A DNA stretch of 32,000 bases from Promethearchaeum syntrophicum (GCF_008000775.2 NZ_CP042905.2:3720001-3752000), one strand, 5' to 3'. Shown: positions 271 to 17,507, counted from the first letter of the stretch. Program-made: numbers and translations. Notes: generated by a model from the letters alone, not told the origin.

Positions 271-867
271 TTAATAATATAATTTAAGGATCTCATTTAG
301 CACAAATATTAACTCCTTACACACTTCTTCCATTTCCTTTGTTAAATTGAAGGAATAAAACGGAATATTTGGATTATTCTCTTTCATATCCAAATCCCAT
401 AAATCTTCTCGATATAATTGATAAGTCTCTAAAAATTTTAATGAGTAGGGACAAATTCCAACTAATTTTATATCAACACCAGAGACACCCCTTTGAATTC
501 GATCAATAAATACAGGTAAAGGTAAACTATGACTTGAAATGGGTAAATAATTGAGTATTTTATCTTCTTCGAAAATTCCGATAGTTCCGGAGGGTTTTTT
601 TAAATCAATAACATCAACTATTAACACTAATTCAGGTTGAAAATCGATTATTTCGGGGAGTCGCTCTTCGGGCGTAATACCACCATTGATAATACTTATT
701 TTAGTTTTATTTTTCCATTTTTGCCATAGTTCCCACGTGATATAAACTCCAGCTCCATCATCACCCATTCTATTCTCACCAATTCCTAAAATTAGTAGTT
801 TTGGAGATGATTTTAAGAGATTGGTTAAGGAAAGATTAAGATTTTTGTATTTTTCCTTTAAATCCAT
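271..867 (-). CDS. [NiFe]-hydrogenase maturation endopeptidase (HycI/HybD/FrhD family)
   Basis: It has LILGIGENRMGDDGAGV (the GIGNxxxGDDGxG-type motif), a later acidic LIVDVID segment and SSHSLP. These match the Glu/Asp-Asp-His metal ligands of this protease family. It sits between hypD and hypE. Confidence 0.8.
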   Translation of the reverse strand: MDLKEKYKNLNLSLTNLLKSSPKLLILGIGENRMGDDGAGVYITWELWQKWKNKTKISIINGGITPEERLPEIIDFQPELVLIVDVIDLKKPSGTIGIFEEDKILNYLPISSHSLPLPVFIDRIQRGVSGVDIKLVGICPYSLKFLETYQLYREDLWDLDMKENNPNIPFYSFNLTKEMEEVCKELIFVLNEILKLYY

Positions 868-925
868 AATAACATTATTTTAGTAAAATTGTTAAAATTT
901 CGGAATTTATTCTATAATTGGAATA

Positions 926-1957
926 ATGTCAGAGAAAAAAATAATTCAATTAGGTCATGGTGGGGGAGGGATTTTACAAGGAGAATTAATTAAATTTATT
1001 ACGGAAAATATCCCTATTAAGAAAATTGGCAAGGGAATTGGAGTTGATGCTTATGATGATGGAGCTACTGTACCTTTAGATAATTACGATTATGAAATTG
1101 TAGTTACTGCCGATGGACATACAATACATCCATTATTTTTTCCGGGGGGAGATTTGGGAAAATTATCAGTTTGCGGAACAGTGAACGATTTAATTATGAT
1201 GGGAGCAAAACCACTTGCTTTAACATCAGTAGTTCTGATAGAGGAAGGTACCGCATTCGATTTTCTGGGAAAAATTATGGATTCCTTTAACAAAACCGCT
1301 GGAGAGGGTGAAATTGCAATATTAGCGGGAGATACAAAGGTAATGCCTCGCGGATCGTTGAAAGAAATTATTATTACTACTTCCGGGATTGGAATTAAAT
1401 CAAAAAAATGTCAAATATTAGATTCTAATTGCAAACCAGGAGCAAAAATCATTCTTACGGGATCTATTGGAGATCATGGAGCCGCCCTTATTGCCAGAAG
1501 AGAAGGAATTGACTTAGAAACAGAATTAAAATCAGATGTGGCAATGTTGACACCCCTTTATACAGTAATAAAAGACCAACCAGGGATATTAGCAATGAAG
1601 GATCCAACTCGTGGTGGCTTAGCCGCAGCATTAAATGAGTGGGCAGAGAAATCTAATATTAGTATTTGGGTGGAAGAGTCACAATTATTAATCAAACGAG
1701 AAGTTAAAGCAATTTCAGAAATATTAGGATTAGATCCTCTAGAAATAGCAAATGAAGGGAAAGCGATAATCTGCGTTGAATCAGAATATGCTTCTCAACT
1801 GTTAGAAAAAATCAAAAAAACATCAATAGGAAAAGAAGCCCGAATAATTGCCGAGGTTAAAGAATCAAATCCAAAGTTAGTTATAATGAAAACTCCATTA
1901 GGAAGTAAAAGAATTATTGAAAAACCTATGGGAGAATTAATTCCTCGTATTTGTTAA
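926..1957 (+). CDS. hypE: HypE hydrogenase maturation protein (carbamoyl dehydratase)
   Basis: It has the PurM-like fold signature GHGGGG near the N-terminus and the diagnostic C-terminal PRIC. Confidence 0.95.
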   Translation: MSEKKIIQLGHGGGGILQGELIKFITENIPIKKIGKGIGVDAYDDGATVPLDNYDYEIVVTADGHTIHPLFFPGGDLGKLSVCGTVNDLIMMGAKPLALTSVVLIEEGTAFDFLGKIMDSFNKTAGEGEIAILAGDTKVMPRGSLKEIIITTSGIGIKSKKCQILDSNCKPGAKIILTGSIGDHGAALIARREGIDLETELKSDVAMLTPLYTVIKDQPGILAMKDPTRGGLAAALNEWAEKSNISIWVEESQLLIKREVKAISEILGLDPLEIANEGKAIICVESEYASQLLEKIKKTSIGKEARIIAEVKESNPKLVIMKTPLGSKRIIEKPMGELIPRIC

Positions 1958-1981
1958 AATTCTCATGTAATTTTACTCTTT

Positions 1982-4408
1982 GTGATTGAAATGAAGCAAC
2001 AGAAAATAATTATCACAGGAATTGTGCAAGGTGTTGGTTTTCGACCTTTTCTTTATAATTTTCTTCGTTCATATCATTTAAAGGGAAAGATTCAAAATAC
2101 GGGTAATTTGGGGGTTTCTCTCGAATTACAATCCTCTGATGATGATTTTAATTTTCAAAATTTGATTCAAGATCTAAAAAAGAAGGTTCCAAAAATGGCA
2201 TTTATCGAAGACATCCGATTATTGCCTTTTTCAAACATTCAACAGCAAGTAAAATTTGACCAACTTCAGATAATCCCAAGCAATGAAGGGATAGGAGCCG
2301 GGCTCACTTTACCTCCCGATATTGCAATGTGTGACAAATGTTTACATGATTTTAATAACAAATCCAATTCATCTTTTTTTCACTATCCATTTATCAGTTG
2401 CGCTCAATGTGGTCCCAGATTCACAATTATGGAGTCACTTCCTTACGATCGGGAATATAGCATGATGGACGAATTTCCATTTTGTGAAGATTGTAAAAAA
2501 ATCTTTTCTAATATAGATAATCGACGTTTTCATGCCCAAACTTTTGGATGTAATTCTTGTGGTCCTCATTATTTTGATGAAATAAGTCAAAGAGAACCTA
2601 GTCAGAAAGATCTTCCCAAAATTATAGAAAAAATGGTTGAAGCGATAAAAATCGGAAAAATTATTGCACTAAAAGGAATCGGAGGTGTCAATTTAGTTTG
2701 TAGAGCTGATAAAGAACAATCAATTCAAACACTCCGAAACAGAAAAAAGGAAAGAAAATTCAAACCTTTTGCAGTTATGATGCCTAATTTAGAGACAGCA
2801 AGGAAATACTGCGAAATCCCAAAAGAATTTGAAACCATATTGACTTCTTTTCGAAGACCGATCATTTTATTTAAAAAGAAAGAAGGAACTTTACCTGAAA
2901 ATCTTTCACCAGGATTACCCAATATAGGAATAATTCTTCCGTATATGGGATTACATTACTTATTGTTCGAAAAACTTGGAAAAATTCCTTTGGTATTTAC
3001 TAGTGGGAATGTTTCTTCACTACCAATGGCCATCGAAAACACAATGATAAAAAAACATATGGTAAATTTAGCAGATGAAATATATCTTCATAATCGCAAG
3101 ATTTACCAACGTTGCGATGATTCAGTAATCCGCCCTGTGTTAAATTCTCCAATTTTAATCCGCCGTTCAAGAGGATATGTCCCAGAATATTATAAACTTC
3201 CTTTTAAAACTAATACTAAAAGTATTATTGCAACAGGTGCAGAATTGAATAGTACCGGAGCCATAAGCAGAGGAGAAAGGATTTTTCCAACACAACATAT
3301 CGGAAATGTCCGAAATCTTGATACTTATGAATTTCTTGAAAACGCAATCCTTCATATGCAGCATCTTTTAAAAATTACTGATTCAGAAATTAATGCAATA
3401 GGAAGGGATATGCACCCATTATTTCAATCTTCAAGACTTGCTTCCAAATTATTAGAAAACCTCAATAAATCTAAAAATGGTAAAGGAAAGGAGATTTCTA
3501 TTTGGTCTGTTCAACATCATCATGCTCACCTTGCTTCTCTAATGGTTGACAATAAAATGCCCATGGATAGTGAAATGATTGCAATTACTATAGATGGGGT
3601 CGGTTATGGAAGTGATAAACAACCTTGGGGGGGAGAAATATTAAGAGGAGGATATTCATCTTTTGAACGACTGGGACATTTGGAACCAATTCCTATGGTG
3701 GGAGGAGATTTGTGTGCGAAATATCCACCTCGCATGTTATTATGTACTTTAATGAATTCGGTTGGATATAAAGAAAATCCAGAGATCATTGAAGAATTAA
3801 CCAGTAAATTAAATTTAGCTCAATATTTTCCACAAGGATTTCAAGAAATAAAGTACATAACCAATAAATTCAACCAACTTGATGAAATAACTCCTCAAAA
3901 ACATCCACGTACCTCAAGTTTTGGGAGGTATTTAGATGCCATCTCTTCTTTATTTGGTGTTTCACAATTGAGAACATACCGCGGAGAACCTGCAATGAGG
4001 CTTGAAGGGTTCATTTGGAATGGCACTCCGAAAACATATTTTAATTTAGATCAATATCTCCATGGAAATGTGATATTGAGTGATCAACTTCTTTGGGATT
4101 ATACTAATCTATTATTAACAGAACCAAAATTTAAAAAGAAGAAAGAACAAAAAGACCTTGCACGATCGCTAGTGACCGATACTAGTAAATTGTTTGCCCA
4201 AATTGCAATAAGAAATTCAGAAGAGGTAGGGATTAAAGATATTGGAGTCTCGGGTGGAGTAGCTTACAATGAAATTATTATGCAAGTAATAAAATCAGAA
4301 GTTGAGAAGAGGGGATTTAGGTTTTTACAGCATAAGAATATAGCACCAGGTGATGCGGGTGTTTCTATTGGACAAATTGCCAGTATTATTGCGAGATTAA
4401 AATTGTAA
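1982..4408 (+). CDS. hypF: HypF carbamoyltransferase
   Basis: It has an N-terminal acylphosphatase motif (GIVQGVGFRPF) and two zinc-finger pairs (CDKC..CAQCGPRF and CEDC..CNSCGPHY). YrdC-like and Kae1-like regions follow, with HHHAH and a C-terminal GDAGVSIGQ. GTG at 1982 or ATG at 1991 could be the start. Confidence 0.95.
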   Translation: MIEMKQQKIIITGIVQGVGFRPFLYNFLRSYHLKGKIQNTGNLGVSLELQSSDDDFNFQNLIQDLKKKVPKMAFIEDIRLLPFSNIQQQVKFDQLQIIPSNEGIGAGLTLPPDIAMCDKCLHDFNNKSNSSFFHYPFISCAQCGPRFTIMESLPYDREYSMMDEFPFCEDCKKIFSNIDNRRFHAQTFGCNSCGPHYFDEISQREPSQKDLPKIIEKMVEAIKIGKIIALKGIGGVNLVCRADKEQSIQTLRNRKKERKFKPFAVMMPNLETARKYCEIPKEFETILTSFRRPIILFKKKEGTLPENLSPGLPNIGIILPYMGLHYLLFEKLGKIPLVFTSGNVSSLPMAIENTMIKKHMVNLADEIYLHNRKIYQRCDDSVIRPVLNSPILIRRSRGYVPEYYKLPFKTNTKSIIATGAELNSTGAISRGERIFPTQHIGNVRNLDTYEFLENAILHMQHLLKITDSEINAIGRDMHPLFQSSRLASKLLENLNKSKNGKGKEISIWSVQHHHAHLASLMVDNKMPMDSEMIAITIDGVGYGSDKQPWGGEILRGGYSSFERLGHLEPIPMVGGDLCAKYPPRMLLCTLMNSVGYKENPEIIEELTSKLNLAQYFPQGFQEIKYITNKFNQLDEITPQKHPRTSSFGRYLDAISSLFGVSQLRTYRGEPAMRLEGFIWNGTPKTYFNLDQYLHGNVILSDQLLWDYTNLLLTEPKFKKKKEQKDLARSLVTDTSKLFAQIAIRNSEEVGIKDIGVSGGVAYNEIIMQVIKSEVEKRGFRFLQHKNIAPGDAGVSIGQIASIIARLKL

Positions 4409-6973: not shown

Positions 6974-7315
6974 ATGTTATCAGCGAAAATTGCTAACTTC
7001 TTTTCGGCGTTAGGCGATGAAACGAGAATAAAAATTTTAGCATTGTTATATGACCAAAATCCCATTTCCGTTAGTGATATTATGAATAGACTAGGAAATA
7101 TTACGAAGCATGCATTATCTTATCAACTTAAAATTTTGAAATCAAAGGATATTATCCGATATCATAAAGTTGGGAAAAAAAGATTATATTATTTATCGGA
7201 TGAGCATGTTTCCCATATTCTAAATGATGTGATTGTTCACTTATCCCCTGAAGGTCCTTGTAATGGAGAATTGAATTGTTCGGATGATTTAAATCTACAT
7301 ATGGTGATTGAATGA
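6974..7315 (+). CDS. ArsR/SmtB-family metal-responsive transcriptional regulator
   Basis: It has the winged-helix signature FSALGDETRIKILALL...ISVSDI...LSYQLKILK. Its stop overlaps the ATPase start (ATGA at 7312-7315). Confidence 0.8.
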   Translation: MLSAKIANFFSALGDETRIKILALLYDQNPISVSDIMNRLGNITKHALSYQLKILKSKDIIRYHKVGKKRLYYLSDEHVSHILNDVIVHLSPEGPCNGELNCSDDLNLHMVIE

Positions 7316-9345
7316 ATCAAAATGGAAAAGAAAACAATCTAGATGTTCAAATTTTACCTTCGGAATTATTAGAACTCGAAGAATCTACAGAATCCAATAC
7401 TTGCGGTTGTGGAGATTGCGCTGATCTTACTGTGAATATTGCAGAAGAGAAATTTAATTGGTTGAATCAAGCAATACCTTATGTAATTTCTTTAGTACTT
7501 GCAATCATCGCTGCAATTATTGGGTTAAAAGAAAATAATCAAGAATTTATAGCCAATATTTATTTCTATGTTTTTCTTCTAGCGAGTTATGGGTTTTCTT
7601 CTTTTAATGTGATATTTGGGTTTTTAAAGAACTTGCGTCCCAAAACAATTTTTGACGAACGTTTTTTGATGATAGTAGCGACAATTGGAGCGTTTTTTAT
7701 AGGTGAATTCTTTGAAGCAATCGGAGTTATGTTATTCTACAATATTGGTTCCATTTTAGAAAAATTTTCAGTATTTAAGTCCAAGAGATCTATTAAAAAA
7801 TTATTAGAAAATCAGCCAAAATATGCAAATATCAAAAGAACTGATGGATCCATTAATAGAATTGACCCAAGTGAAGTAAAAATTGGAGATCTAGTTGTAG
7901 TTAGACCGGGGGAAAAAGTACCTGTGGATGGAAAAATGGTCTCAGAAAATTCGATTTTTAACACTTCTGCCCTAACAGGTGAGTCACTACCACGTAAAAT
8001 TATTCAAAATGAGAAAGTATTAGCAGGAATGATAAATTTAACTAATTTCTGTGAAATTTCCGTCATAAATATATATGAAAATTCAGCAATAGCCCGGATC
8101 CTTTATCTTGTTCAACATGCAGATACTAATAAATCGAAAACAGAGAAGATTTCAAATCGGTTTGCAAAATATTATACTCCCATTATTTTAGGTTCTGCAA
8201 TCTTTCTTGCAATAATTCCACCAATATTACTACCAGGTTCAAGTTTTTCAGACTGGTTATATAGAGCCATGGTATTTTTAGTAATTTCTTGCCCTTGTGC
8301 ATTAGTATTATCTATTCCTTTAACATATTTCATTGGAATTGGTGAATCTGCGCGTAATGGTATAATTGTAAAAGGAACGAAGAATTTAGAAACATTAGCA
8401 AAGGTAAATACTGTAGTTTTTGATAAAACGGGGACAATTACTAAGGGAAACTTTACCGTTTCTAAAATAATGGCATTAAACGGACATTCTGAAATAGAAT
8501 TATTAGAAATGACAGCTTCTCTTGAAAAATATTCTACACATCCGATTGGAGTATCAATCGTTGAAGCTTTCAAAGAAAAAGGTTTAGAAGATTCACATCA
8601 ATCAATTGAAAATTTTAGAGAAATATCTGCTTTGGGAATTAGTGCGGAATTAGATGGCTCAGATATCCTTATTGGAAATGATAAAATTCTTCATGAATTT
8701 AAAATACCACACCTCCATAAATATTGTTCAATTTCTGGAACGGTAGTACATATTGCTTTAAATAAAATTTACATTGGTTATATTTTAATATCGGATGAAA
8801 TTAGGGAAGAAGCCAAAGAATCAATTACAGACTTACGTAAATTAGGGATTAATGATTTCATGATTCTATCTGGGGATGAGAAATCTATTGTTTCAGATAT
8901 TGCACAAAAGTTAGGGATTAAAAATTATTATCACAGTTTATTGCCCGAAGACAAAGTTACAAAGCTTAAAGATATCAAAACCCACTCAAATATTGTTGCA
9001 TTTATAGGGGATGGAATTAATGATGCTCCAATAATTGCCCATTCAGATGTTGGTATAGCGCTTGCAGGAATAGGCTCAGATATTGCAATTGAAACGGCAG
9101 ATGTAGTAATTAACTCAACAAATCTCCTTAAAGTCGAAAAAATGATACAAATTTCTCGGAAAACCCGCATGATTAATCGAGAAAATATCGCATTAATTGT
9201 TTTAATTAAATCTCTTTTCTTATTATTGGGAGCAATAGGAATAGCATCAATGTGGGGGGCAGTATTTGCTGATGTAGGAGTTACAATCTTGACTGTTGTA
9301 AATGCTCAAAGAGTGGCAAGTAAAAATAATAAAAAAAAAGTATGA
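7312..9345 (+). CDS. P1B-type heavy-metal translocating ATPase (CPC type, Zn/Cd/Pb-like)
   Basis: It has TGES, the transmembrane CPC (SCPCALVLS), DKTGTIT, the HP motif (STHPIG) and GDGINDAP. The N-terminus carries CGCGDC rather than a recognisable HMA domain. Confidence 0.9.
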   Translation: MNQNGKENNLDVQILPSELLELEESTESNTCGCGDCADLTVNIAEEKFNWLNQAIPYVISLVLAIIAAIIGLKENNQEFIANIYFYVFLLASYGFSSFNVIFGFLKNLRPKTIFDERFLMIVATIGAFFIGEFFEAIGVMLFYNIGSILEKFSVFKSKRSIKKLLENQPKYANIKRTDGSINRIDPSEVKIGDLVVVRPGEKVPVDGKMVSENSIFNTSALTGESLPRKIIQNEKVLAGMINLTNFCEISVINIYENSAIARILYLVQHADTNKSKTEKISNRFAKYYTPIILGSAIFLAIIPPILLPGSSFSDWLYRAMVFLVISCPCALVLSIPLTYFIGIGESARNGIIVKGTKNLETLAKVNTVVFDKTGTITKGNFTVSKIMALNGHSEIELLEMTASLEKYSTHPIGVSIVEAFKEKGLEDSHQSIENFREISALGISAELDGSDILIGNDKILHEFKIPHLHKYCSISGTVVHIALNKIYIGYILISDEIREEAKESITDLRKLGINDFMILSGDEKSIVSDIAQKLGIKNYYHSLLPEDKVTKLKDIKTHSNIVAFIGDGINDAPIIAHSDVGIALAGIGSDIAIETADVVINSTNLLKVEKMIQISRKTRMINRENIALIVLIKSLFLLLGAIGIASMWGAVFADVGVTILTVVNAQRVASKNNKKKV

Positions 9346-9366: not shown

Positions 9367-10200
9367 TTATTCAAATTTTAAACCGCAATATTCGCAATAT
9401 TCATGGTTAGAAGAACTTTCCTCACCACATCTTGGACAATATCTCTTATCCGAGGGAGTATTATTAATTCTTCTTTCCACTACTACTTCTTCTCTAATAT
9501 CTTGTGAAAAAGCAGGATTAGAATTTACGTTGATATTCAAATTTTGGCGTTCGCGTCGTTCATGATATCTCGTTCTTAGATTTTCTTGGTGTCGAGTTAT
9601 GCTATCGATGATTACAAATGAAACAAGCATAATCGGTACACAAGGCCACCAAAACCAATTAGGACGACCATTACTAAAAATATCTACAAATATTAAGAAG
9701 AAACAAACTACCGCAGGATACCATAATGCATGTAATCTAGCTACGGGTTGACCTAATTCAATTTTTTTGATTCTCATATAAGCAACAAAATGTTCTCCAA
9801 CACCTATACCCATTGCAGCAACTGGCCATGCAAACCATGGATAGCCCATTCCTGTAATTACATTTAGGAGGAAAAGAAACATACTTACGGTTAATATGAC
9901 CGCAAAATGAATATAAAAACCACGATCTGATTTATAGGGATATCGATGAATAATAAAAATTACGGAACTATGAATTGATATCCCGATACCCCACGATATT
10001 AGCGGATATAAGAACCAGAAATTACCACCACTAACTCCTGTTAAAAAATTTAGTACCATTAAAAAGCAATTTACTGCAATATAAGTTATCCAATGTGCCC
10101 TTAAACCTGTTCTTGCACCTACTCGATTAAAATTGGGATTATTCCCATGAAATCTGGAATAATTCGAATTATTTTCCGAATTTCTTTGATTGTCCACCAT
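9367..10200 (-). CDS. membrane protein with three 2TM-type hairpin repeats and a C-terminal zinc ribbon
   Basis: A hydrophobic-hairpin pattern with WF..P...WGIG..H-like spacing occurs three times. The C-terminus is CPRCG...CEYCG. Confidence 0.6.
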   Translation of the reverse strand: MVDNQRNSENNSNYSRFHGNNPNFNRVGARTGLRAHWITYIAVNCFLMVLNFLTGVSGGNFWFLYPLISWGIGISIHSSVIFIIHRYPYKSDRGFYIHFAVILTVSMFLFLLNVITGMGYPWFAWPVAAMGIGVGEHFVAYMRIKKIELGQPVARLHALWYPAVVCFFLIFVDIFSNGRPNWFWWPCVPIMLVSFVIIDSITRHQENLRTRYHERRERQNLNINVNSNPAFSQDIREEVVVERRINNTPSDKRYCPRCGEESSSNHEYCEYCGLKFE

Positions 10201-10402
10201 TTATTTCAACTCAATTTTAGCTATATGATGTTAACATATAGCATCTGTTTTAATTTATTATGAGACCAATCTTTAGCAAGAAGGTATTTTTATATTGTGA
10301 AAATATTTAAGAATCGTGTCTCCCACGATATTCACTAATCTTAACAGTATTTTAAAAGTTAATTGGATGCAATTTAAAATTAAGAATAAAATAAAAAAAA
10401 AA

Positions 10403-10481
10403 GAACAATCCCCGGGCAGGGGTCTCCCATATCTCCATAGTTTTCAAGATATGATCATTGAATTCATCCTTTCACGAATGA
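10403..10481 (-). promoter_or_regulatory. 3' UTR of the selenopeptide gene with candidate SECIS-type stem-loops, ending in a T10 termination tract
   Basis: On the minus-strand RNA, UCAUAUCU/AGAUAUGG forms an 8-bp hairpin (+10427..10454). It is followed by GAGA-CCCC-UGCCC-GGGG-A (+10409..10426), then U10 (+10393..10402). This is the only GC-rich structured patch between the stop codon and the T tract. Confidence 0.3.
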
Positions 10482-10640
10482 TTATCCGCAGTCAACTTCC
10501 AACTTGCGAATGACTCGCTCAGTACCGTCTGGCTCAACAATGGTAATGTGAGCTGCACACGAGAGTCAGCAGTCATAACAGCGAATAACCATTTCCAATA
10601 GGTTCAAAATGTTATCATTTACTTCTACTACCATTTTCAT
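10482..10640 (-). CDS. vhuU: VhuU-like selenopeptide: the separately encoded C-terminal segment of the [NiFeSe]-hydrogenase large subunit, with an in-frame TGA read as Sec
   Basis: I translated it manually as MKMVVEVNDNILNLLEMVIRCYDC-TGA-LSCAAHITIVEPDGTERVIRKLEVDCG-TAA. The TGA is at 10566..10568. U-x-x-C-x-x-H sits exactly where the DPCxxCxxH motif is missing from the upstream large subunit. A GGAG lies 6 nt before the ATG, and the gene starts 10 nt after the large-subunit stop. Confidence 0.75.
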
Positions 10641-10650
10641 TTCATCTCCA

Positions 10651-11988
10651 TTATTTCACCATAGGGTCAGGTAATTTTACTTTATCTAAAATTCCTTGTT
10701 CAAATATTTGCTGGGCTGCGTGTTTCACGCTTTTTTCAATACCCGCAATATTGTGGTTTGTTGCAACTAAAAGATTCAGCTTTCGGCAAATACCTTCTGC
10801 ATCCGTGGTCATATCATATATAAGATTTCCTCTAGGAGCATCAACCATTCCGACACCGCGCCCTGCTATAGGTTTGATATCAAGAGTTTTGATATCCGTG
10901 CTTATAATTTCGGGATCTTTTAAGTACTTGATAATTAATTCAAAAGCAGCAACGGTTTCAATGATTCGAGCCCAATGATAAGCAAATGTATGATGAAAAA
11001 CTCCATTATCTTTTCCAAGAATCTTTTGAAACATTTCTTTTCGAGCAGCTTCAGCCAACGGAGTTTCCATTTCATCGCAAGCGTTTATCATTGCCAGTGA
11101 ATTAGTTCGATATATTCCATCTGGATAACCTACTGGACGGTAATAGGTGTGTGTTGCATAAGAATGATTAGGAATATGCTCACCAATTGCTTCCAAGTAA
11201 TCTGCAGGTTTGTAAACCGTTTTCTTACCTTCAGGTGAAACGAATACAATATCCCCATCATAGATTTCATGAACGAGTTTTCCATTGACTTGTTTGGCTA
11301 CACCACAGTAATATGTTGGGGTAACTGCAAGGTTAGCAACAACATCCCAATAATCAAACACGACTTTTTTAGCTAAATCGACTGTAGCTTTTACGTATTC
11401 TAATTGTTCAGGTATTTGAGCAATAAAGGAATCTCGCATTTCTGATGTTAAAGGATTTCGCATTCCCCCAACAATTCCAGCAATTGAACCAACGGATTTT
11501 CCACCAATGAAAGCGCTAATATTCTGCCCAAAATCCATCATTTTCAAAGCCATTGCTCCGACATCGGGTAAATCTTTGATAATTTGAACTACATTTCTCT
11601 TTGCAGGATCTGCAAAAGGACCATAAACAAAATCGGGTGCAGCTAATGCAAAGAAATGCAATAAATGCGAGCTATACTGTTTTGCATTCATGAATAGCTG
11701 ACGCAATTTATAAGCTGCAGTAGGAATTTCTACATTCCATGCAGCTTCTACCGATTTTGTGGCTGCAATGTGATGAGGAACAGGACAAATACCACAAATT
11801 CGATTAGTTATTCTTGGAACATGTTCAGCATATCGGCCAATACAAAGTTTCTCAAAGAAACGGGTTGACGTTATGTTAAATTGCACATCTTTTACAGTTT
11901 TACCATCTTCTGCTAAAACTAGTCTTAAACCACCGTGACCTTCTAAACGGGTTACGGGTTCAACTTCATATACTTTATCTGGAGACAT
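10651..11988 (-). CDS. vhuA: [NiFe(Se)]-hydrogenase large subunit, group-3 Mvh/Vhu type, lacking its C-terminal metal-binding segment
   Basis: It has N-terminal PVTRLEGHG and the RICGICPVPH (RxCGxCxxxH) Ni-Fe ligand motif. The ORF ends ...KLPDPMVK with no DPCxxCxxH. Confidence 0.9.
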   Translation of the reverse strand: MSPDKVYEVEPVTRLEGHGGLRLVLAEDGKTVKDVQFNITSTRFFEKLCIGRYAEHVPRITNRICGICPVPHHIAATKSVEAAWNVEIPTAAYKLRQLFMNAKQYSSHLLHFFALAAPDFVYGPFADPAKRNVVQIIKDLPDVGAMALKMMDFGQNISAFIGGKSVGSIAGIVGGMRNPLTSEMRDSFIAQIPEQLEYVKATVDLAKKVVFDYWDVVANLAVTPTYYCGVAKQVNGKLVHEIYDGDIVFVSPEGKKTVYKPADYLEAIGEHIPNHSYATHTYYRPVGYPDGIYRTNSLAMINACDEMETPLAEAARKEMFQKILGKDNGVFHHTFAYHWARIIETVAAFELIIKYLKDPEIISTDIKTLDIKPIAGRGVGMVDAPRGNLIYDMTTDAEGICRKLNLLVATNHNIAGIEKSVKHAAQQIFEQGILDKVKLPDPMVK

Positions 11989-11989
11989 T

Positions 11990-12880
11990 TTAGAGATTCA
12001 CCTTCGCTAACGCTTCTTTTCCTTTGTTTCTATGGAATTTTATTCCAAGAGTAGCAGGATCTTTACCCATGGCTAAAGCAATCAATTCCGTAATGTAAAA
12101 TGTTGGAAACTTATATACTTCACCTTCTTCAGCCATAGCTTTTAATTTCGGTTGTTCGCTATCGAATTGTTGAAAACATGAAGGGCAGTTTGCAACTAAG
12201 CAATCAGCACCAGCGCGTTTTGCACCATCAATTTTCGATTTCAACATTGTATTTGCAGTGTAAGGATCGGTATTTCTAACTACATTTCCACAACACAGGT
12301 TTTCTTCTTCATATTTGACAGCAGTAGCACCCGTAGCTTCAACCAGCTTTCTTAAATATTGAAGATTCATTACATCTTCTTCTACTTTCAAGATATGCGA
12401 TGGTCGAGCATAGTGGCATCCCGGATGCAGAGCAACTTTTAATCCTGTTAATGGATGTTTTACACTTGCTTTGATCCTTTCGATGCCTACTTCTTCATAT
12501 AACACTTTGACGAAATGAACTACGTTCGTGGTTCCCTTATATTCTTTACCCACTTTTTTGAGGATTTCGTTTACCTCATTCTTTAAATTAGGATCGTGTT
12601 TCATTTGATGGTCAGCAATAATCAAGGATTGAGCACAACCATTGCATAATGACATTATGTTCTTGTTTTCATTTTCAGCTACAACTAAATTTCTGGCAGC
12701 CAAAGTACACCACGTCTTATTATCTACAAATTTTAGACCAACTGGATTAGGACAACACGCAAATTCGGCAGAGCTATAACCAACACCAAGTTCATCAAAA
12801 ACAACTTTTGCTGATGCTTCAAGGAATGGTAATCGATTTGTCATTAAACATCCAGGAAACAATTTATATTCGGTTGTCAT
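11990..12880 (-). CDS. hdrB: heterodisulfide-reductase subunit B-like protein (two CCG domains)
   Basis: It has two Cys-rich CCG-type modules: ACCPNP...CNGC and LCCGN...CPSC. Its start overlaps the HdrC stop by 1 nt. Confidence 0.85.
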   Translation of the reverse strand: MTTEYKLFPGCLMTNRLPFLEASAKVVFDELGVGYSSAEFACCPNPVGLKFVDNKTWCTLAARNLVVAENENKNIMSLCNGCAQSLIIADHQMKHDPNLKNEVNEILKKVGKEYKGTTNVVHFVKVLYEEVGIERIKASVKHPLTGLKVALHPGCHYARPSHILKVEEDVMNLQYLRKLVEATGATAVKYEEENLCCGNVVRNTDPYTANTMLKSKIDGAKRAGADCLVANCPSCFQQFDSEQPKLKAMAEEGEVYKFPTFYITELIALAMGKDPATLGIKFHRNKGKEALAKVNL

Positions 12881-13407
12881 TATGCAGTCCCCTCCTCTTC
12901 TTTCTTTCCGAGTACTTTATTTATCCCAGTTGCTTCCATTATAATTTTGACTTCATCGACCGGAATTTTAGGTGGTAAACCAATACCCAATTTTTCACGA
13001 CGTTTATTAATTGCATCTTGAACTGGAATAGCCATTCCGTTGTCTCTAATAGTTCGAGCGGATTCCGGATAAAATTCGGGTGTTGCACCTGCAGCTACTG
13101 CAGCGTTCTTCAGATAACAAATAATATCTGTAATAGGTATTTCACTTGGACAGTACTCGTCGCATGTTTCACAAGCAGTACATCCCCACAAAGCAAATGG
13201 ATCACGTCCTACCGCTGCAAATAAGGCATCTTTGTATCCCAAAGCAGAGAATAAAACAAGATCTCGTGGATTGTATCGTGATCCCCATCGGTGGTGAACT
13301 GGGCATACCTCATTGCATTTGCCACATTGGAAACAGTAAGAGATTTTTTCTCCACCGATCATAAGGTCAAGAACATCTCTTTTCACATGTAAATCTATAT
13401 TAACCAT
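12880..13407 (-). CDS. hdrC: heterodisulfide-reductase subunit C-like 2x[4Fe-4S] ferredoxin
   Basis: The cluster motifs are CFQCGKCNEVCP and CTACETCDEYCP. There is 1 nt between the small-subunit stop and its ATG. Confidence 0.8.
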   Translation of the reverse strand: MVNIDLHVKRDVLDLMIGGEKISYCFQCGKCNEVCPVHHRWGSRYNPRDLVLFSALGYKDALFAAVGRDPFALWGCTACETCDEYCPSEIPITDIICYLKNAAVAAGATPEFYPESARTIRDNGMAIPVQDAINKRREKLGIGLPPKIPVDEVKIIMEATGINKVLGKKEEEGTA

Positions 13408-13408
13408 A

Positions 13409-14770
13409 TTAATTCTCCTCCACTTTTCTTCCTAAAGAACTTGTAGGAACACAAAACCGGGCAAATAACCCAGCAGGATCGCTGAAGAATTTTTTAATAT
13501 TCTCAGGATCATCTCTACAAATTGATGGGAAAAGACTCATCGCTTTAGATGGGAAGTCATCAACATTCAAAGCGGGACCATAACACCCTAAACATGGACT
13601 ATTTGCATTACAACATGTAGCTCCGCAACCAGCTTTTGTTATGGGTCCCATACATACGTAGCCTTGAACTAATAAACATTTTTCTTGATCTGGAAAACCT
13701 TCATAATCACGTATGTAACGAATTACTTCTTTGTCAACAACATTCCTTTCACATTGTGAGCATACAGTTTGTGCAGAATCATCATAATCGGGATTATCCT
13801 TAAGATTTCCCATAGCCGCTCCTACAATATTATTCAATATCTCAGGATATCCTTCAACAGTAAAATCAACAATTTCTTTTTCATTTACCAGTTTTGTTCT
13901 TAAATTATCTGGATCTAGTTTAACAGCGCGAATTGGATCGGCTTTTCCTACTAAATATCCCAATGGAACCGTGTTCAATGTCATGAGGAGTGTTTCCACA
14001 GTTTGTTGAACTTCCTTTCGAGATAATGGTTGTGCAGTTATTTTCTTAAACAATTTTTCCGCGTTTATGTTATGAACTTTTTTAGTTAATCCAAATTCCC
14101 CTAATACCGGATATCCCGACTCTATTCTTCCAAGTGGCACTGCAGAGGCAGTTATAGGTCCATAACATAATCTATCTTGATCAAGTAAACAAGTTTCCAA
14201 TGGACATACATCGCACATGGATTTCTCAGCATTGACTACTGTCTTTACTTGACCCAGTACAGTCGCAATTAAGCCAATAATATTACCTGTTTTTGGTGGA
14301 CACCCTGGTAAATCAACATCAATTTTTGTAACGGTGTGAAGATCCGGAATAAAATCCAAAAATTTTGAAACGTGTTGATCGGGAACAGTAGAACCCGGAT
14401 CTACAAATTCAGGGTCGGTAAACTTCCTTTCAGTAAGTTCTTCGATTGAAAATAAGTTTGCAAGTCCAGGACACCCTCCTAAAACAGCACAAGCCCCTAT
14501 CGCTACAATAACTTTGCATTTTCTCCGCATTAAATGAACATGTTCAAGATCGGCTTCAGTTCGACAAAAACCTTCAAGAAAACCAACATCTACACTATTA
14601 TCCTCGTAATTTTCCAAGTGTTTCAATTTAAAATCGACAACAGCAGGCCAATAAACGATTTCAATTTCCGGTATTACATGCAAGAGCGTTAAATGAGCAT
14701 CTAAAAGAGACTGGTGGCAACCCCAACACGAAGCTAATTGCATAAAAGCTACTTTTGCCATATTTTTCAA
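13409..14770 (-). CDS. [NiFe]-hydrogenase small subunit, group-3 (MvhG/VhuG-like), extended (453 aa)
   Basis: The proximal-cluster motifs are ASCWGC, GACAVLGGCPG and LPGCPP. The medial and distal motifs are CDVCPLETC...C and CMGPITKAGCGATCCNANSPCLGCYGP. A Cys-free segment of roughly 130 aa lies between them. Confidence 0.85.
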   Translation of the reverse strand: MKNMAKVAFMQLASCWGCHQSLLDAHLTLLHVIPEIEIVYWPAVVDFKLKHLENYEDNSVDVGFLEGFCRTEADLEHVHLMRRKCKVIVAIGACAVLGGCPGLANLFSIEELTERKFTDPEFVDPGSTVPDQHVSKFLDFIPDLHTVTKIDVDLPGCPPKTGNIIGLIATVLGQVKTVVNAEKSMCDVCPLETCLLDQDRLCYGPITASAVPLGRIESGYPVLGEFGLTKKVHNINAEKLFKKITAQPLSRKEVQQTVETLLMTLNTVPLGYLVGKADPIRAVKLDPDNLRTKLVNEKEIVDFTVEGYPEILNNIVGAAMGNLKDNPDYDDSAQTVCSQCERNVVDKEVIRYIRDYEGFPDQEKCLLVQGYVCMGPITKAGCGATCCNANSPCLGCYGPALNVDDFPSKAMSLFPSICRDDPENIKKFFSDPAGLFARFCVPTSSLGRKVEEN

Positions 14771-15166: not shown

Positions 15167-15466
15167 TTAAAAATTTAATATTGAATCATTTTCAAAAATC
15201 AAATCTACTACTTCATCTGTTGTAACTAATTTAATTTTATCAGAAATGAATTTTACTAATCCCCTTTTCATAATATCCTCTTTACATGCAATAACTATCT
15301 TATTTTGATTAATTGCTTGTGAAACGGTATTATTGAATTTATTTGCAAAATACACTGCATTTTGAAGTAGAAGAATTGTTACTTCGTCTTCAATAGAATG
15401 TTCCATCGCAGTTTCTACTCCAGTGATATCTTGACTGGAAATAAAATATAACACTTTTTTTGCCAT
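15167..15466 (-). CDS. DsrH/TusB-family sulfur-relay protein
   Basis: It is 99 aa with an ILLLQNAVYFA segment typical of DsrH/TusB. It is the third of three consecutive small DsrE-fold genes. Confidence 0.7.
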   Translation of the reverse strand: MAKKVLYFISSQDITGVETAMEHSIEDEVTILLLQNAVYFANKFNNTVSQAINQNKIVIACKEDIMKRGLVKFISDKIKLVTTDEVVDLIFENDSILNF

Positions 15467-15479
15467 TTTTTCATGCCTC

Positions 15480-15824
15480 CTAAAATGGGATGGTTACGGA
15501 TGATTCCGCAATCATTTTTACTATATCACAATGATCTACAATTTTCACATGATCAACTAAATCCTCTTTGACTAATCCCCTCTCATCAATGGATTTCTTA
15601 TCAACAAAGATATCTAAATCAATACTTTTCAAGAAATTCATATGTACTAAATACATAGTTTTATCTACATCCTTAGTAAAGGTGTATACTGCATCATTAA
15701 TGGCAATGGTAATCGGATCAAAATCGGCACTAACTGCTACTGCCATTCGTAACCCCTCAACAGGATAAAGTGTTCCGTGTGGGGGTTGTCGCAAAAGAAT
15801 AACTACATTTTTTTCTTCAGTCAT
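15480..15824 (-). CDS. DsrF/TusC-family sulfur-relay protein
   Basis: It is 114 aa with a PPHGTLYPVEGLRMAVAV segment typical of DsrF/TusC. It lies between the DsrE-like and DsrH-like genes. Confidence 0.7.
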   Translation of the reverse strand: MTEEKNVVILLRQPPHGTLYPVEGLRMAVAVSADFDPITIAINDAVYTFTKDVDKTMYLVHMNFLKSIDLDIFVDKKSIDERGLVKEDLVDHVKIVDHCDIVKMIAESSVTIPF

Positions 15825-15835
15825 TTTTCATCACC

Positions 15836-16198
15836 TTAACAGATTACAATAAGTCTATCAGTTTCGTCAATAATTCTAGCAAGATCAGGTGTTCCAGCTT
15901 TTTTAATATCTCCGCTTTCCTTTGTGATACAATTTTTCATTGTACCTCTTACTAAAAGACAAATATTACAGAGTCTGATTGTCGCCCCTTTACTTAATAT
16001 TTCTTTAAAACCTTCTTCAATATTCATAATACCTTCTATTTTTTTTTGTTTTTCTAAGACCGCATTCACTGCATCCATATAACAAAAAATGCGGACACTG
16101 TGTCCTTTATCTAGTGCAGCGTTTGCGATTTTGCATACAGATTCACTAGCCTGTTTTTGATAAGGTCCATCAAAGAAAAGGATTCCTAATTTGGGCAT
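15836..16198 (-). CDS. DsrE/TusD-family sulfurtransferase
   Basis: It is 120 aa with an N-terminal GILFFDGPY. A conserved Cys context, LCNICLLVRG, sits near the position of the TusD/DsrE active-site Cys. Confidence 0.75.
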   Translation of the reverse strand: MPKLGILFFDGPYQKQASESVCKIANAALDKGHSVRIFCYMDAVNAVLEKQKKIEGIMNIEEGFKEILSKGATIRLCNICLLVRGTMKNCITKESGDIKKAGTPDLARIIDETDRLIVIC

Positions 16199-16224
16199 TT
16201 TTTAATTTCAACTCCCATCCTAAG

Positions 16225-17265
16225 TTAATCGTCTTTTTCTCTGAATAGTAAAAATGCCAAAAACCAACACCCTAATACTATTCCAACTGATGAAACTATA
16301 CTACCAACAGATAACTGAGGGATCCCGCTTAAAAGATTTCCAACATTACAACCTGAGGCAACAACTGCTCCAAAACCCATTATAAATCCACCTAAAAATT
16401 GTAACAATATTGTTTTACCTTCCTTTGGAGTTCTAAGCTTAAATTCACCAGCAATCAATGAAGCAATCAATGCACCAACAATAACGCCCAATACTAACCA
16501 TGAAATCCAGGATAATGCAGCTACATCTCCAGTAACTAAATATTTTAAGTTTCCTATCCAACCCGCAGTAATTCCTAAAGGATAATTTCTACCGGCTGCA
16601 GCAGATAAAGGCCATGCAATAATATTTATAATACCAATTAAATAGCCAGTTGAATACCAAGACCATCCTTTCTTGAATATATTTTCTCCTAAATTACTGA
16701 AATCAAAGAATTTCTCTCTCTTTGCTTTAATTTCTTTAAATACCCAGAAGTAGAAAGTTACTACAAGACCAATTACACCAATAATTAAACAGAATAATGG
16801 TGTTAAATCTCCAAAAACAGTGATTCCACCAGTAGATACTGATTGTAAAGCTGTAGTGACTCCTGAAAGAGCACCAGATTTTGTGGTAAACGCCCCAATT
16901 GCTAACCCAACTAAGGCTACCAATGATCCCATCATACCTTCTCCAACTCGATAGGTCGTTCCACTAGCACATCCTGCAGCAAGAACCATTCCTAATCCAA
17001 AAACAAATCCGCCGATAATAGACCCATATGCGAATAATGGTTTTGGATTCCAGGTAACCCATCCTGCAAGACCCATAATTCCAAATCCGGCCATGCATGT
17101 TAATAATGCAAGAGCTACAGATTTTATTAGTTTATATTCCTTTAATAAGATAATATCTCTAAAAGCGGAGTTCATACAAAATCGACCGCGTTGTAGGATT
17201 ATACCAAATAACATCCCAATCAAAAGTCCTGATATTAAGACTGCATAAAATTCTGCCATTTTCAT
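16225..17265 (-). CDS. YeeE/YedE-family sulfur (thiosulfate) or selenium transporter
   Basis: It is a polytopic membrane protein with two GRFCMNS/ASGC-type half-repeats (RGRFCMNSAF, AAGCASG, ASGCNVG). I chose the ATG at 17265, preceded by AAGGAG, over the track start at 17301, which overlaps tusA. Confidence 0.8.
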   Translation of the reverse strand: MKMAEFYAVLISGLLIGMLFGIILQRGRFCMNSAFRDIILLKEYKLIKSVALALLTCMAGFGIMGLAGWVTWNPKPLFAYGSIIGGFVFGLGMVLAAGCASGTTYRVGEGMMGSLVALVGLAIGAFTTKSGALSGVTTALQSVSTGGITVFGDLTPLFCLIIGVIGLVVTFYFWVFKEIKAKREKFFDFSNLGENIFKKGWSWYSTGYLIGIINIIAWPLSAAAGRNYPLGITAGWIGNLKYLVTGDVAALSWISWLVLGVIVGALIASLIAGEFKLRTPKEGKTILLQFLGGFIMGFGAVVASGCNVGNLLSGIPQLSVGSIVSSVGIVLGCWFLAFLLFREKDD

Positions 17266-17273
17266 TTTGCTCC

Positions 17274-17507
17274 TTATTTTATACGGACCAAGATTTGCCA
17301 TGAAGATTTATCTTTTTTCTCTACTGAGATTACTTCATGTCCGAGTTTTTTCATTGTTTCAGGAATTCTTTCAGCTGAAAGCGGATAATCAATTAAAATT
17401 TCTAAAATATTTCCTGAATTCATCTTCTTAACTTTCCTTTTAGATTTTACATCGGGATATGGACATACTTCACCCATGCAATCCAGTGTTTCTGTAATTT
17501 CTACCAT
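17274..17507 (-). CDS. tusA: TusA-family sulfur carrier
   Basis: It is 77 aa with DCMGEVCPYP, which matches the D.xG..CP.P active-site motif. Confidence 0.85.
   Translation of the reverse strand: MVEITETLDCMGEVCPYPDVKSKRKVKKMNSGNILEILIDYPLSAERIPETMKKLGHEVISVEKKDKSSWQILVRIK

Follow-up and report, generated by a model that had tools for sequence, protein, structure and literature searches.

VhuU selenoproteins and the lokiSECIS element have been described in Lokiarchaeota (Mariotti et al. 2016, PMC4989117), and among Asgard genomes that use Sec, 68% were found to carry the FrhA/MvhA/VhuU selenoprotein family (Huang et al. 2024, PMC11227280). In Methanococcus and Methanocaldococcus, VhuU (NF041786; PDB 9sfi_M and 9t1s) has a small gene of its own, immediately following that of a VhuA truncated at its C terminus, places selenocysteine (Sec) at the first Cys of the C-terminal CxxCxxH motif and continues into a C-terminal extension after the His; the locus of Promethearchaeum syntrophicum MK-D1 described here resembles it in all three respects.

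MK-D1 is the first cultured Asgard archaeon, and its syntrophic H2 transfer underlies models of the origin of eukaryotes. The organism encodes only one hydrogenase, MvhADG-HdrABC (Imachi et al. 2020), and the word selenium is absent from the paper that reports it. We analyzed a 32,000-nucleotide stretch of DNA from this organism (the window, with positions counted from its first letter), in which a 159-nt frame with an in-frame TGA directly follows a truncated hydrogenase large subunit on the minus strand. Taken as a whole, the evidence makes it very probable that this frame is vhuU, a real selenoprotein gene of P. syntrophicum MK-D1, which would make its product the catalytic-site peptide of the only hydrogenase in this organism.

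A TGA-containing frame follows a truncated large subunit

The elements of the split large subunit are the following.

10651..11988, minus strand: vhuA, group 3c large subunit, 445 aa; RICGICPVPH at residues 63-72, C-terminal ligand motif absent
10646..10649, minus strand: GGAG, putative ribosome-binding site by its sequence, 5 nt upstream of the ATG at 10640
10482..10640, minus strand: vhuU, 52 codons, 159 nt (translation, NCBIfam VhuU, PDB alignment, conservation over 79 loci)
10569-10580, minus strand: Cys-containing residues 21-24 of VhuU (sequence comparison)
10566..10568, minus strand: in-frame TGA (residue 25), aligned with the first Cys of the C-terminal CxxCxxH Ni-ligand motif
10485..10547, minus strand: 21-codon C-terminal extension after His31 (ITIVEPDGTERVIRKLEVDCG), read from the sequence and under purifying selection

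Direct translation of positions 10640..10482 gives MKMVVEVNDNILNLLEMVIRCYDC*LSCAAHITIVEPDGTERVIRKLEVDCG*, in which the internal stop is the TGA at 10568..10566 and the terminal stop is a TAA at 10484..10482. The ATG at 10634 could serve as the start just as well; it would yield a 50-aa product and is the sole start in some relatives. The spacer between vhuA and vhuU measures 10 nt and reads TAA-TGGAGATGAA-ATG, with the GGAG at 10649..10646. With the TGA read as Sec, the motif becomes D-C-U-L-S-C-A-A-H, so that a Cys directly precedes Sec at a position where the canonical residue is Pro. The ORF lister returns only the 24-aa first half of this gene (10566..10640) and a 65-aa antisense ORF at 10316..10513. 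The proteins that flank vhuU, QEE18112 and QEE18113, have consecutive accessions, from which we infer that no VhuU protein was deposited in GenBank; the gene thus appears to be missing from the deposited MK-D1 protein set.

The initial annotation is confirmed, each feature lying where it placed it. It had described a 445-aa large subunit carrying RICGICPVPH, ending in ...KLPDPMVK and devoid of a C-terminal DPCxxCxxH; a 10-nt spacer with a GGAG, followed by an ATG frame with an in-frame TGA and a TAA end; a tail of 21 residues after the His; and an ORF track that misses the gene and shows only a spurious antisense ORF.

The short peptide carries the missing ligand motif

The 445-aa protein matches the NCBIfam VhuA profile with an E value of 2.7e-132 over profile positions 6-417 of 418, and the short peptide, searched with Cys written at the TGA position, matches NCBIfam VhuU (NF041786) with an E value of 1.1e-14. 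Both scores fall below the curated NCBI equivalog cut-offs (441 bits versus 800 for VhuA; 53.9 bits versus 70 for VhuU), which marks the two proteins as distant relatives of the methanogen ones; Pfam does not recognize the 52-aa peptide. In the PDB, the best match of VhuA is likewise the large chain of a split enzyme, VhuA chain 9sfi_g (418 aa, E 1.5e-116), and the alignment of the VhuA plus VhuU concatenate to the unsplit large subunits 7t2r_D, 5odc_F and 9sw2_F runs across the junction as far as their CxxCxxH motif. The short peptide itself matches the solved VhuU chain 9sfi_M (27 residues) position by position, as LNLLEMVIRCYDC(U)LSCAAHI, with the TGA on the X (Sec) of that chain, and it also aligns to 9sw2_F and 5odc_F, with the TGA opposite the Cys of MvhA. 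From the alignment of the TGA with the Sec of 9sfi_M it follows that the peptide brings the two C-terminal Ni ligands, Sec first.

The proposal that the peptide is the VhuU-like C terminus of a split large subunit is therefore borne out by the NF041786 match, by the 9sfi_M alignment and by colinearity with MvhA, the alignments to VhuU and to MvhA C termini being those that had been suggested as a check. A rival complete large subunit with a C-terminal motif of its own, the finding that would have spoken against a split enzyme, is absent from the window, and the genome holds one hydrogenase according to Imachi et al. 2020.

Operon context and maturation genes

Upstream of vhuA in the direction of transcription lie three further subunit genes, and a maturation cluster is found near the start of the window.

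11990..12880, minus strand: HdrB-like protein with two CCG domains (Pfam CCG; a match below cut-off, E 5.6e-81, to NCBIfam CoB-CoM heterodisulfide reductase B)
12880..13407, minus strand: HdrC-like 4Fe-4S dicluster subunit (Pfam Fer4_8; NCBIfam HdrC, E 1.7e-23, below cut-off)
13409..14770, minus strand: VhuG-like small subunit of 453 aa (matched by NCBIfam VhuG over two separate stretches, E 4e-64)
271..867, minus strand: HycI-family maturation endopeptidase (Pfam HycI, E 7e-12; TIGR00072, 71 bits, above the cut-off of 47)
926-1957, plus strand: HypE, hydrogenase maturation
1982-4408, plus strand: HypF, hydrogenase maturation

Five closely spaced genes form the operon, in the order vhuG, hdrC, hdrB, vhuA and, at its end, vhuU; no hdrA or vhuD homologue is among them. 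VhuA, the HdrB-like and HdrC-like proteins and the 2TM protein encoded downstream are identical to QEE18113.1, QEE18114.1, QEE18115.1 and QEE18112.1, respectively, of MK-D1. The RICGICPVPH motif and a VhuG-like subunit in the same operon place the enzyme in group 3c. The VhuG-like protein is longer than its solved counterparts, at 453 aa versus 288-308 aa in the solved VhuG and MvhG: PDB 9sfi_I matches its residues 3-191 and 336-450, the insert of ≈145 residues between them (about 192-335) is without a match, and the long form is conserved across Lokiarchaeial loci.

Three gene orders are found among the loci compared. The order G-hdrC-hdrB-A-U is shared by the window and the eight loci L001-L008 (Promethearchaeum, Lokiarchaeum and Harpocratesius); most Lokiarchaeia have G-A-U-hdrC-hdrB; and about ten loci have G-A-hdrC-hdrB-U, with vhuU and its SECIS 1.5 kb away from vhuA.

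The maturation cluster of HycI-family, HypE and HypF genes (271-4408) lies about 6-10 kb from the vhu operon. The endopeptidase that had been assigned at 271..867 is indeed of the HycI family by both Pfam and TIGR00072, and it is a candidate for removal of the VhuU tail, a role that presumes its pairing with this hydrogenase.

On its other side, the hydrogenase-HdrBC operon is directly adjoined by a cluster of TusA, YeeE (sulfur transport), DsrE, DsrF and DsrH genes (15167-17507, minus strand). The same sulfur cluster stands beside the operon, usually divergently, in about 20 of 80 related loci, among them L001, L011, L013, L017-L020, L041, L046, L055, L068, L069, L073 and L078. This arrangement suggests that the Hdr-type module may be linked to a sulfur-relay system.

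The TGA and the sequence beyond it are conserved

Of 120 VhuA homologues listed, most are 433-446 aa long and three are shorter fragments; among these homologues, every VhuA that is not such a fragment is truncated at the same place, and every taxon-named one is from an Asgard archaeon, mostly of the Loki lineage. A scan of species-representative genomes gave 80 loci, two of which lie on contigs that end too early to include the small ORF. A small vhuU-type ORF is present in the other 78 scanned loci and in the window, 79 in all; in this set, Lokiarchaeum ossiferum and Harpocratesius repetitus are represented by complete genomes. At the Sec position, 79/79 of the loci that carry the small ORF have TGA, and the LSCAAH that follows is nearly invariant in spite of varying codons. 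The pN/pS ratio is 0.108 in the close clade and 0.178 over all loci for the 18 codons before the TGA, and 0.145 and 0.24, respectively, for the 27 codons after it, where synonymous variation is high (pS 0.57-0.76). Coding constraint extends past the TGA: the downstream codons are under purifying selection, with values similar to those before it.

Natural Cys homologues also exist. Three protein database entries read DCCLSCAAH (P0124-P0126), and the codon is TGT in the two for which encoding contigs were read (L081-L083). On one of these, metagenome contig JBFONC010032710.1 (L082, 699-4030), a VhuA with a Cys-containing U subunit (TGT) is followed in tandem by a VhuA with a Sec-containing one (TGA). 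The Cys/TGT homologues and this tandem pair are the classical Sec/Cys signature; the pair can be likened to the Vhc/Vhu isoenzymes of Methanococcus but, unlike these, has both copies split. Three further database entries (P0121-P0123) show W at the TGA position, which we attribute to gene calling with a genetic code in which TGA stands for Trp.

The reading of the TGA as the first residue of a U-x-x-C-x-x-H at the first C-terminal Cys ligand is thus upheld by its fixation in all 79 loci and by its alignment with the Sec of 9sfi_M. The initial annotation had also named conservation of the TGA, or its replacement by a Cys codon, and conservation downstream of it as points to examine in homologous loci; the results were a TGA in every locus with the small ORF, TGT in some homologues, and pN/pS values of 0.145-0.24 beyond it.

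Typical Lokiarchaeial vhuA-vhuU pairs also turn up in metagenome-assembled genomes labelled 'Candidatus Nanopelagicaceae bacterium' (L075) and 'Thermoplasmata archaeon' (L049), which are probably mis-binned contigs.

A Loki-type SECIS element in the 3′ UTR

The region downstream of the vhuU stop codon contains the following elements.

10425..10458, minus strand: SECIS, Loki-type, eukaryote-like type I, in the 3′ UTR (motif, position, covariation)
10458-10455, minus strand: AUGA of the SECIS, starting 26 nt after the TAA stop
10454-10446, minus strand: 5′ arm of the SECIS, UCAUAUCUU, pairing with the 3′ arm
10445-10436, minus strand: SECIS loop, GAAAACUAUG, 10 nt, with G first, then AAAA, and G as the last nucleotide
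10435-10427, minus strand: 3′ arm of the SECIS, GAGAUAUGG, 9/9 pairs including two G-U
10426-10425, minus strand: GA tail after the stem
10393..10422, minus strand: GC hairpin CCCC-UGCCC-GGGG and a run of 10 U (sequence and fold)

This SECIS is the only 9/9-paired match to the search pattern on either strand of the window (64 kb), where 0.055 matches per window are expected from Markov-simulated sequence. In an alignment of the window with its eight closest relatives (9 loci), 91% of the stem cells pair and 6 of the 9 pairs are changed on both sides; the covariation score was reached by 0/500 shuffles, and slid registers scored far lower. In the lokiSECIS of Mariotti et al. 2016 (PMC4989117), AUGA precedes a stem of 9 bp, the loop is rich in A with G as its last nucleotide, and GA or AA follows the stem; Huang et al. 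2024 (PMC11227280) give a more general type I eSECIS-like model, which allows a stem of 7-15 bp and a loop of 8-20 nt. The MK-D1 element fits the stem, AUGA and GA of the former as well as the latter model. Its loop of 10 nt with G first lies within the 8-20 nt range but departs from the strict 2016 consensus of 11 nt, in which the first five nucleotides are mostly A and the last is G (PMC4989117).

The folding energy is like that of shuffled sequences, with z scores of -0.46 for the 3′ UTR and -0.61 for the SECIS alone. Searches with Rfam, of the whole window at gathering thresholds and of 10200-10700 at permissive E values, returned no SECIS family, and weak matches to RT-17 and snoRNAs were dismissed as chance. 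Given this unremarkable energy and the lack of an Rfam family, the SECIS assignment draws on motif, position and covariation. The initial annotation had proposed a SECIS covariance search of 10390..10481; this region contains the 9/9-paired, covarying pattern match at 10458..10425 and matches no Rfam SECIS family.

Our strict pattern, in which ATGA is directly followed by the 9-nt arm, missed the SECIS in 26 of 79 relatives; inspected by eye, the missed elements either have the stem displaced by one base from AUGA or carry UUGA or AUGC as the core. An AUGC...AA form occurs in an uncultured archaeon MAG (L003, 7539-7580) and in H. repetitus (L004, 7542-7583), a UUGA core that overlaps the stop occurs in L012 and L016 (about 7480-7525), and in many other loci a single additional base separates AUGA from the stem. 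In 44 loci the AUGA overlaps the UGA stop of vhuU, most of these having an AA tail and an 11-nt loop; the same overlap was described for Loki VhuU.1 (Mariotti et al. 2016, PMC4989117). In the Promethearchaeum/Lokiarchaeum clade, vhuU ends with TAA or TAG and the SECIS begins 8-33 nt later, with a GA tail in 7/9 loci and a loop that is usually 10 nt long.

The GC hairpin and U-run beyond the SECIS likely mark the end of the operon transcript, judging from sequence and fold; a similar hairpin follows the SECIS in relatives, and a simple terminator scan did not list the one in the window.

Alternative explanations for the in-frame TGA

Standard gene callers stop at this TGA, the ORF lister gives a 24-aa ORF only, and the consecutive accessions QEE18112 and QEE18113 imply that no protein was deposited, all as expected if translation really ended at the TGA, with the large subunit no more than a truncated relic and the downstream sequence untranslated; yet the 27 codons after the TGA evolve under purifying selection against a high synonymous background and encode exactly the missing CxxH ligands, the TGA is fixed in 79/79 loci with TGT in natural homologues, and this is the only hydrogenase of an organism that produces H2 (Imachi et al. 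2020). We consider such a pseudogene extremely unlikely, the coding constraint beyond the TGA and the recovery of the missing ligands effectively refuting it. A sequencing or assembly error, whether one that turned TGC or TGT into TGA or a frameshift or stop that split a normal full-length MvhA, has general possibility in its favor, but the same split and the same TGA recur in 79 independent assemblies, two complete genomes included, and the listed large-subunit homologues, apart from those that are shorter fragments, all stop at one common point. These comparative data refute an error, to which we assign a vanishingly small probability.

Also very unlikely is a read-through that inserts Trp, Cys or Gly instead of Sec, whether the decoding is genome-wide or near-cognate. 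The W in three database entries (P0121-P0123) and the rarity of TGA as a stop in this AT-rich window (1/27 ORFs) would be in keeping with this explanation, but a covarying SECIS-type element lies directly after the gene, the codon falls on the Ni-ligand Cys/Sec site, at which Trp or Gly could not bind metal, and several other UGA-containing selenoprotein genes, including that for SelD, are found in the same genome. Moreover, none of the other long ORFs in the window depends on passing a TGA, and the sole ORF ending in TGA (7312..9345) has another stop immediately after it. Genome-wide reassignment of TGA in particular is rejected on the SECIS, the metal-ligand position and the lack of another read-through gene in the window.

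Sec decoding and a proposed mechanism

For vhuU to be a selenoprotein gene, MK-D1 must decode Sec. No tRNA-Sec, SelB/EFSec, PSTK, SepSecS or SelD is encoded within the 32-kb window, in which ARAGORN finds no tRNA, and a search of the window for further selenoprotein genes, by in-frame TGA codons that join long ORF halves and by SECIS matches, found none; the presence of the Sec machinery in MK-D1 thus rests on the literature. The supplementary alignments of Huang et al. 2024 (PMC11227280) contain Sec-containing HdrA, VhuD/FrhD, SelD and three Prx-like genes from the same genome, which would agree with an HdrA-VhuD that lies elsewhere in the genome, as in Loki (Mariotti et al. 2016, PMC4989117).

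In the proposed mechanism, VhuA would supply the two N-terminal Cys ligands (RICGIC) and VhuU the two C-terminal Ni ligands, Sec25 and Cys28, with the UGA recoded to Sec via the eukaryote-like lokiSECIS hairpin by an archaeal/eukaryotic-type Sec machinery that would be encoded outside the window. After Ni-Fe insertion, a HycI-type endopeptidase probably cuts off the 21-residue tail following His31, and the cleaved VhuU, about 31 residues long, would stay bound to VhuA. Together with HdrABC and VhuD, the enzyme may then form a complex that confurcates electrons and evolves H2. The ligand roles, the tail cleavage and the confurcating complex are taken from what is known of Vhu enzymes and of how [NiFe] hydrogenases mature; for MK-D1 Vhu, Sec insertion itself, the cleavage of the tail, the composition of the complex and the direction of catalysis are inferred.

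Prior descriptions and significance

We take GCA_008000775 to be the MK-D1 genome. Supplement file 74 of Huang et al. 2024 (PMC11227280) contains an entry headed Lokiarchaeia_GCA_008000775_U, written with X at the Sec position, and its peptide is identical to the 52-residue peptide of the window. The vhuU finding is correct but already known, and the novelty implied in the initial annotation was overrated: the family was published in 2016 and the exact peptide in 2024. What is left as value is the missing GenBank annotation and a reminder that the only hydrogenase of MK-D1 would need selenium. That this sole hydrogenase is, by its predicted Sec ligand, selenium-dependent is a little-noted fact. 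A split [NiFeSe] enzyme bears on the cultivation of MK-D1, through the supply of selenium, on the annotation of its genome, and on how MvhADG-HdrABC is interpreted in Asgard metabolic reconstructions.

Comparison with known systems

The MK-D1 protein is a member of the Lokiarchaeota VhuU described by Mariotti et al. 2016 and of the Asgard FrhA/MvhA/VhuU family of Huang et al. 2024. Its core, running from LNLLEM to SCAAHI, is nearly identical to that of 9sfi_M but has D-C-U and R-C-Y where methanogen VhuU has D-P-U and R-A-Y. The sequence R-C-[YF]-D-C-U is found in all 79 loci, so that Cys21 and Cys24 take the places of the Ala and Pro of methanogen VhuU and MvhA (R-A-Y-D-P-U/C). Nearly all other [NiFe] and [NiFeSe] large subunits have D-P-C/U, whereas D-C-U is fixed in the 79 Lokiarchaeial loci examined; some Lokiarchaeial VhuU in the supplement of Huang et al. 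2024 (PMC11227280) keep D-P-X. One could speculate, although we think it improbable, that Cys24 and Sec25 form a reversible vicinal selenenylsulfide, as in thioredoxin reductase, that acts as a redox switch or protects the Ni site of the sole hydrogenase of these syntrophic archaea from oxygen; if true, a Cys-Sec selenenylsulfide would give an active site of a kind as yet undescribed among hydrogenases.

Further differences from the methanogen enzymes lie in the SECIS, which in MK-D1 is of the Loki- and eukaryote-like AUGA...GA kink-turn type and in methanogen VhuU of a different type, and in the small subunit, with its insert of ≈145 aa relative to solved VhuG. Furthermore, the MK-D1 operon vhuG-hdrC-hdrB-vhuA-vhuU differs from the order in Methanococcus, which is vhuD-G-A-U-B. 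The unsplit MvhA of the Mvh-Hdr complex (5odc_F, 9sw2_F) belongs to the same fold family, has the same ligand motifs and is colinear with VhuA plus VhuU, but is a single polypeptide with Cys at the ligand position where the MK-D1 subunit is split and has Sec. Finally, the periplasmic [NiFeSe] hydrogenase HysA (PDB 5jsu_B) has Sec at the same ligand position in a single polypeptide, and the SECIS of bacterial HysA lies inside the coding sequence, just after the UGA.
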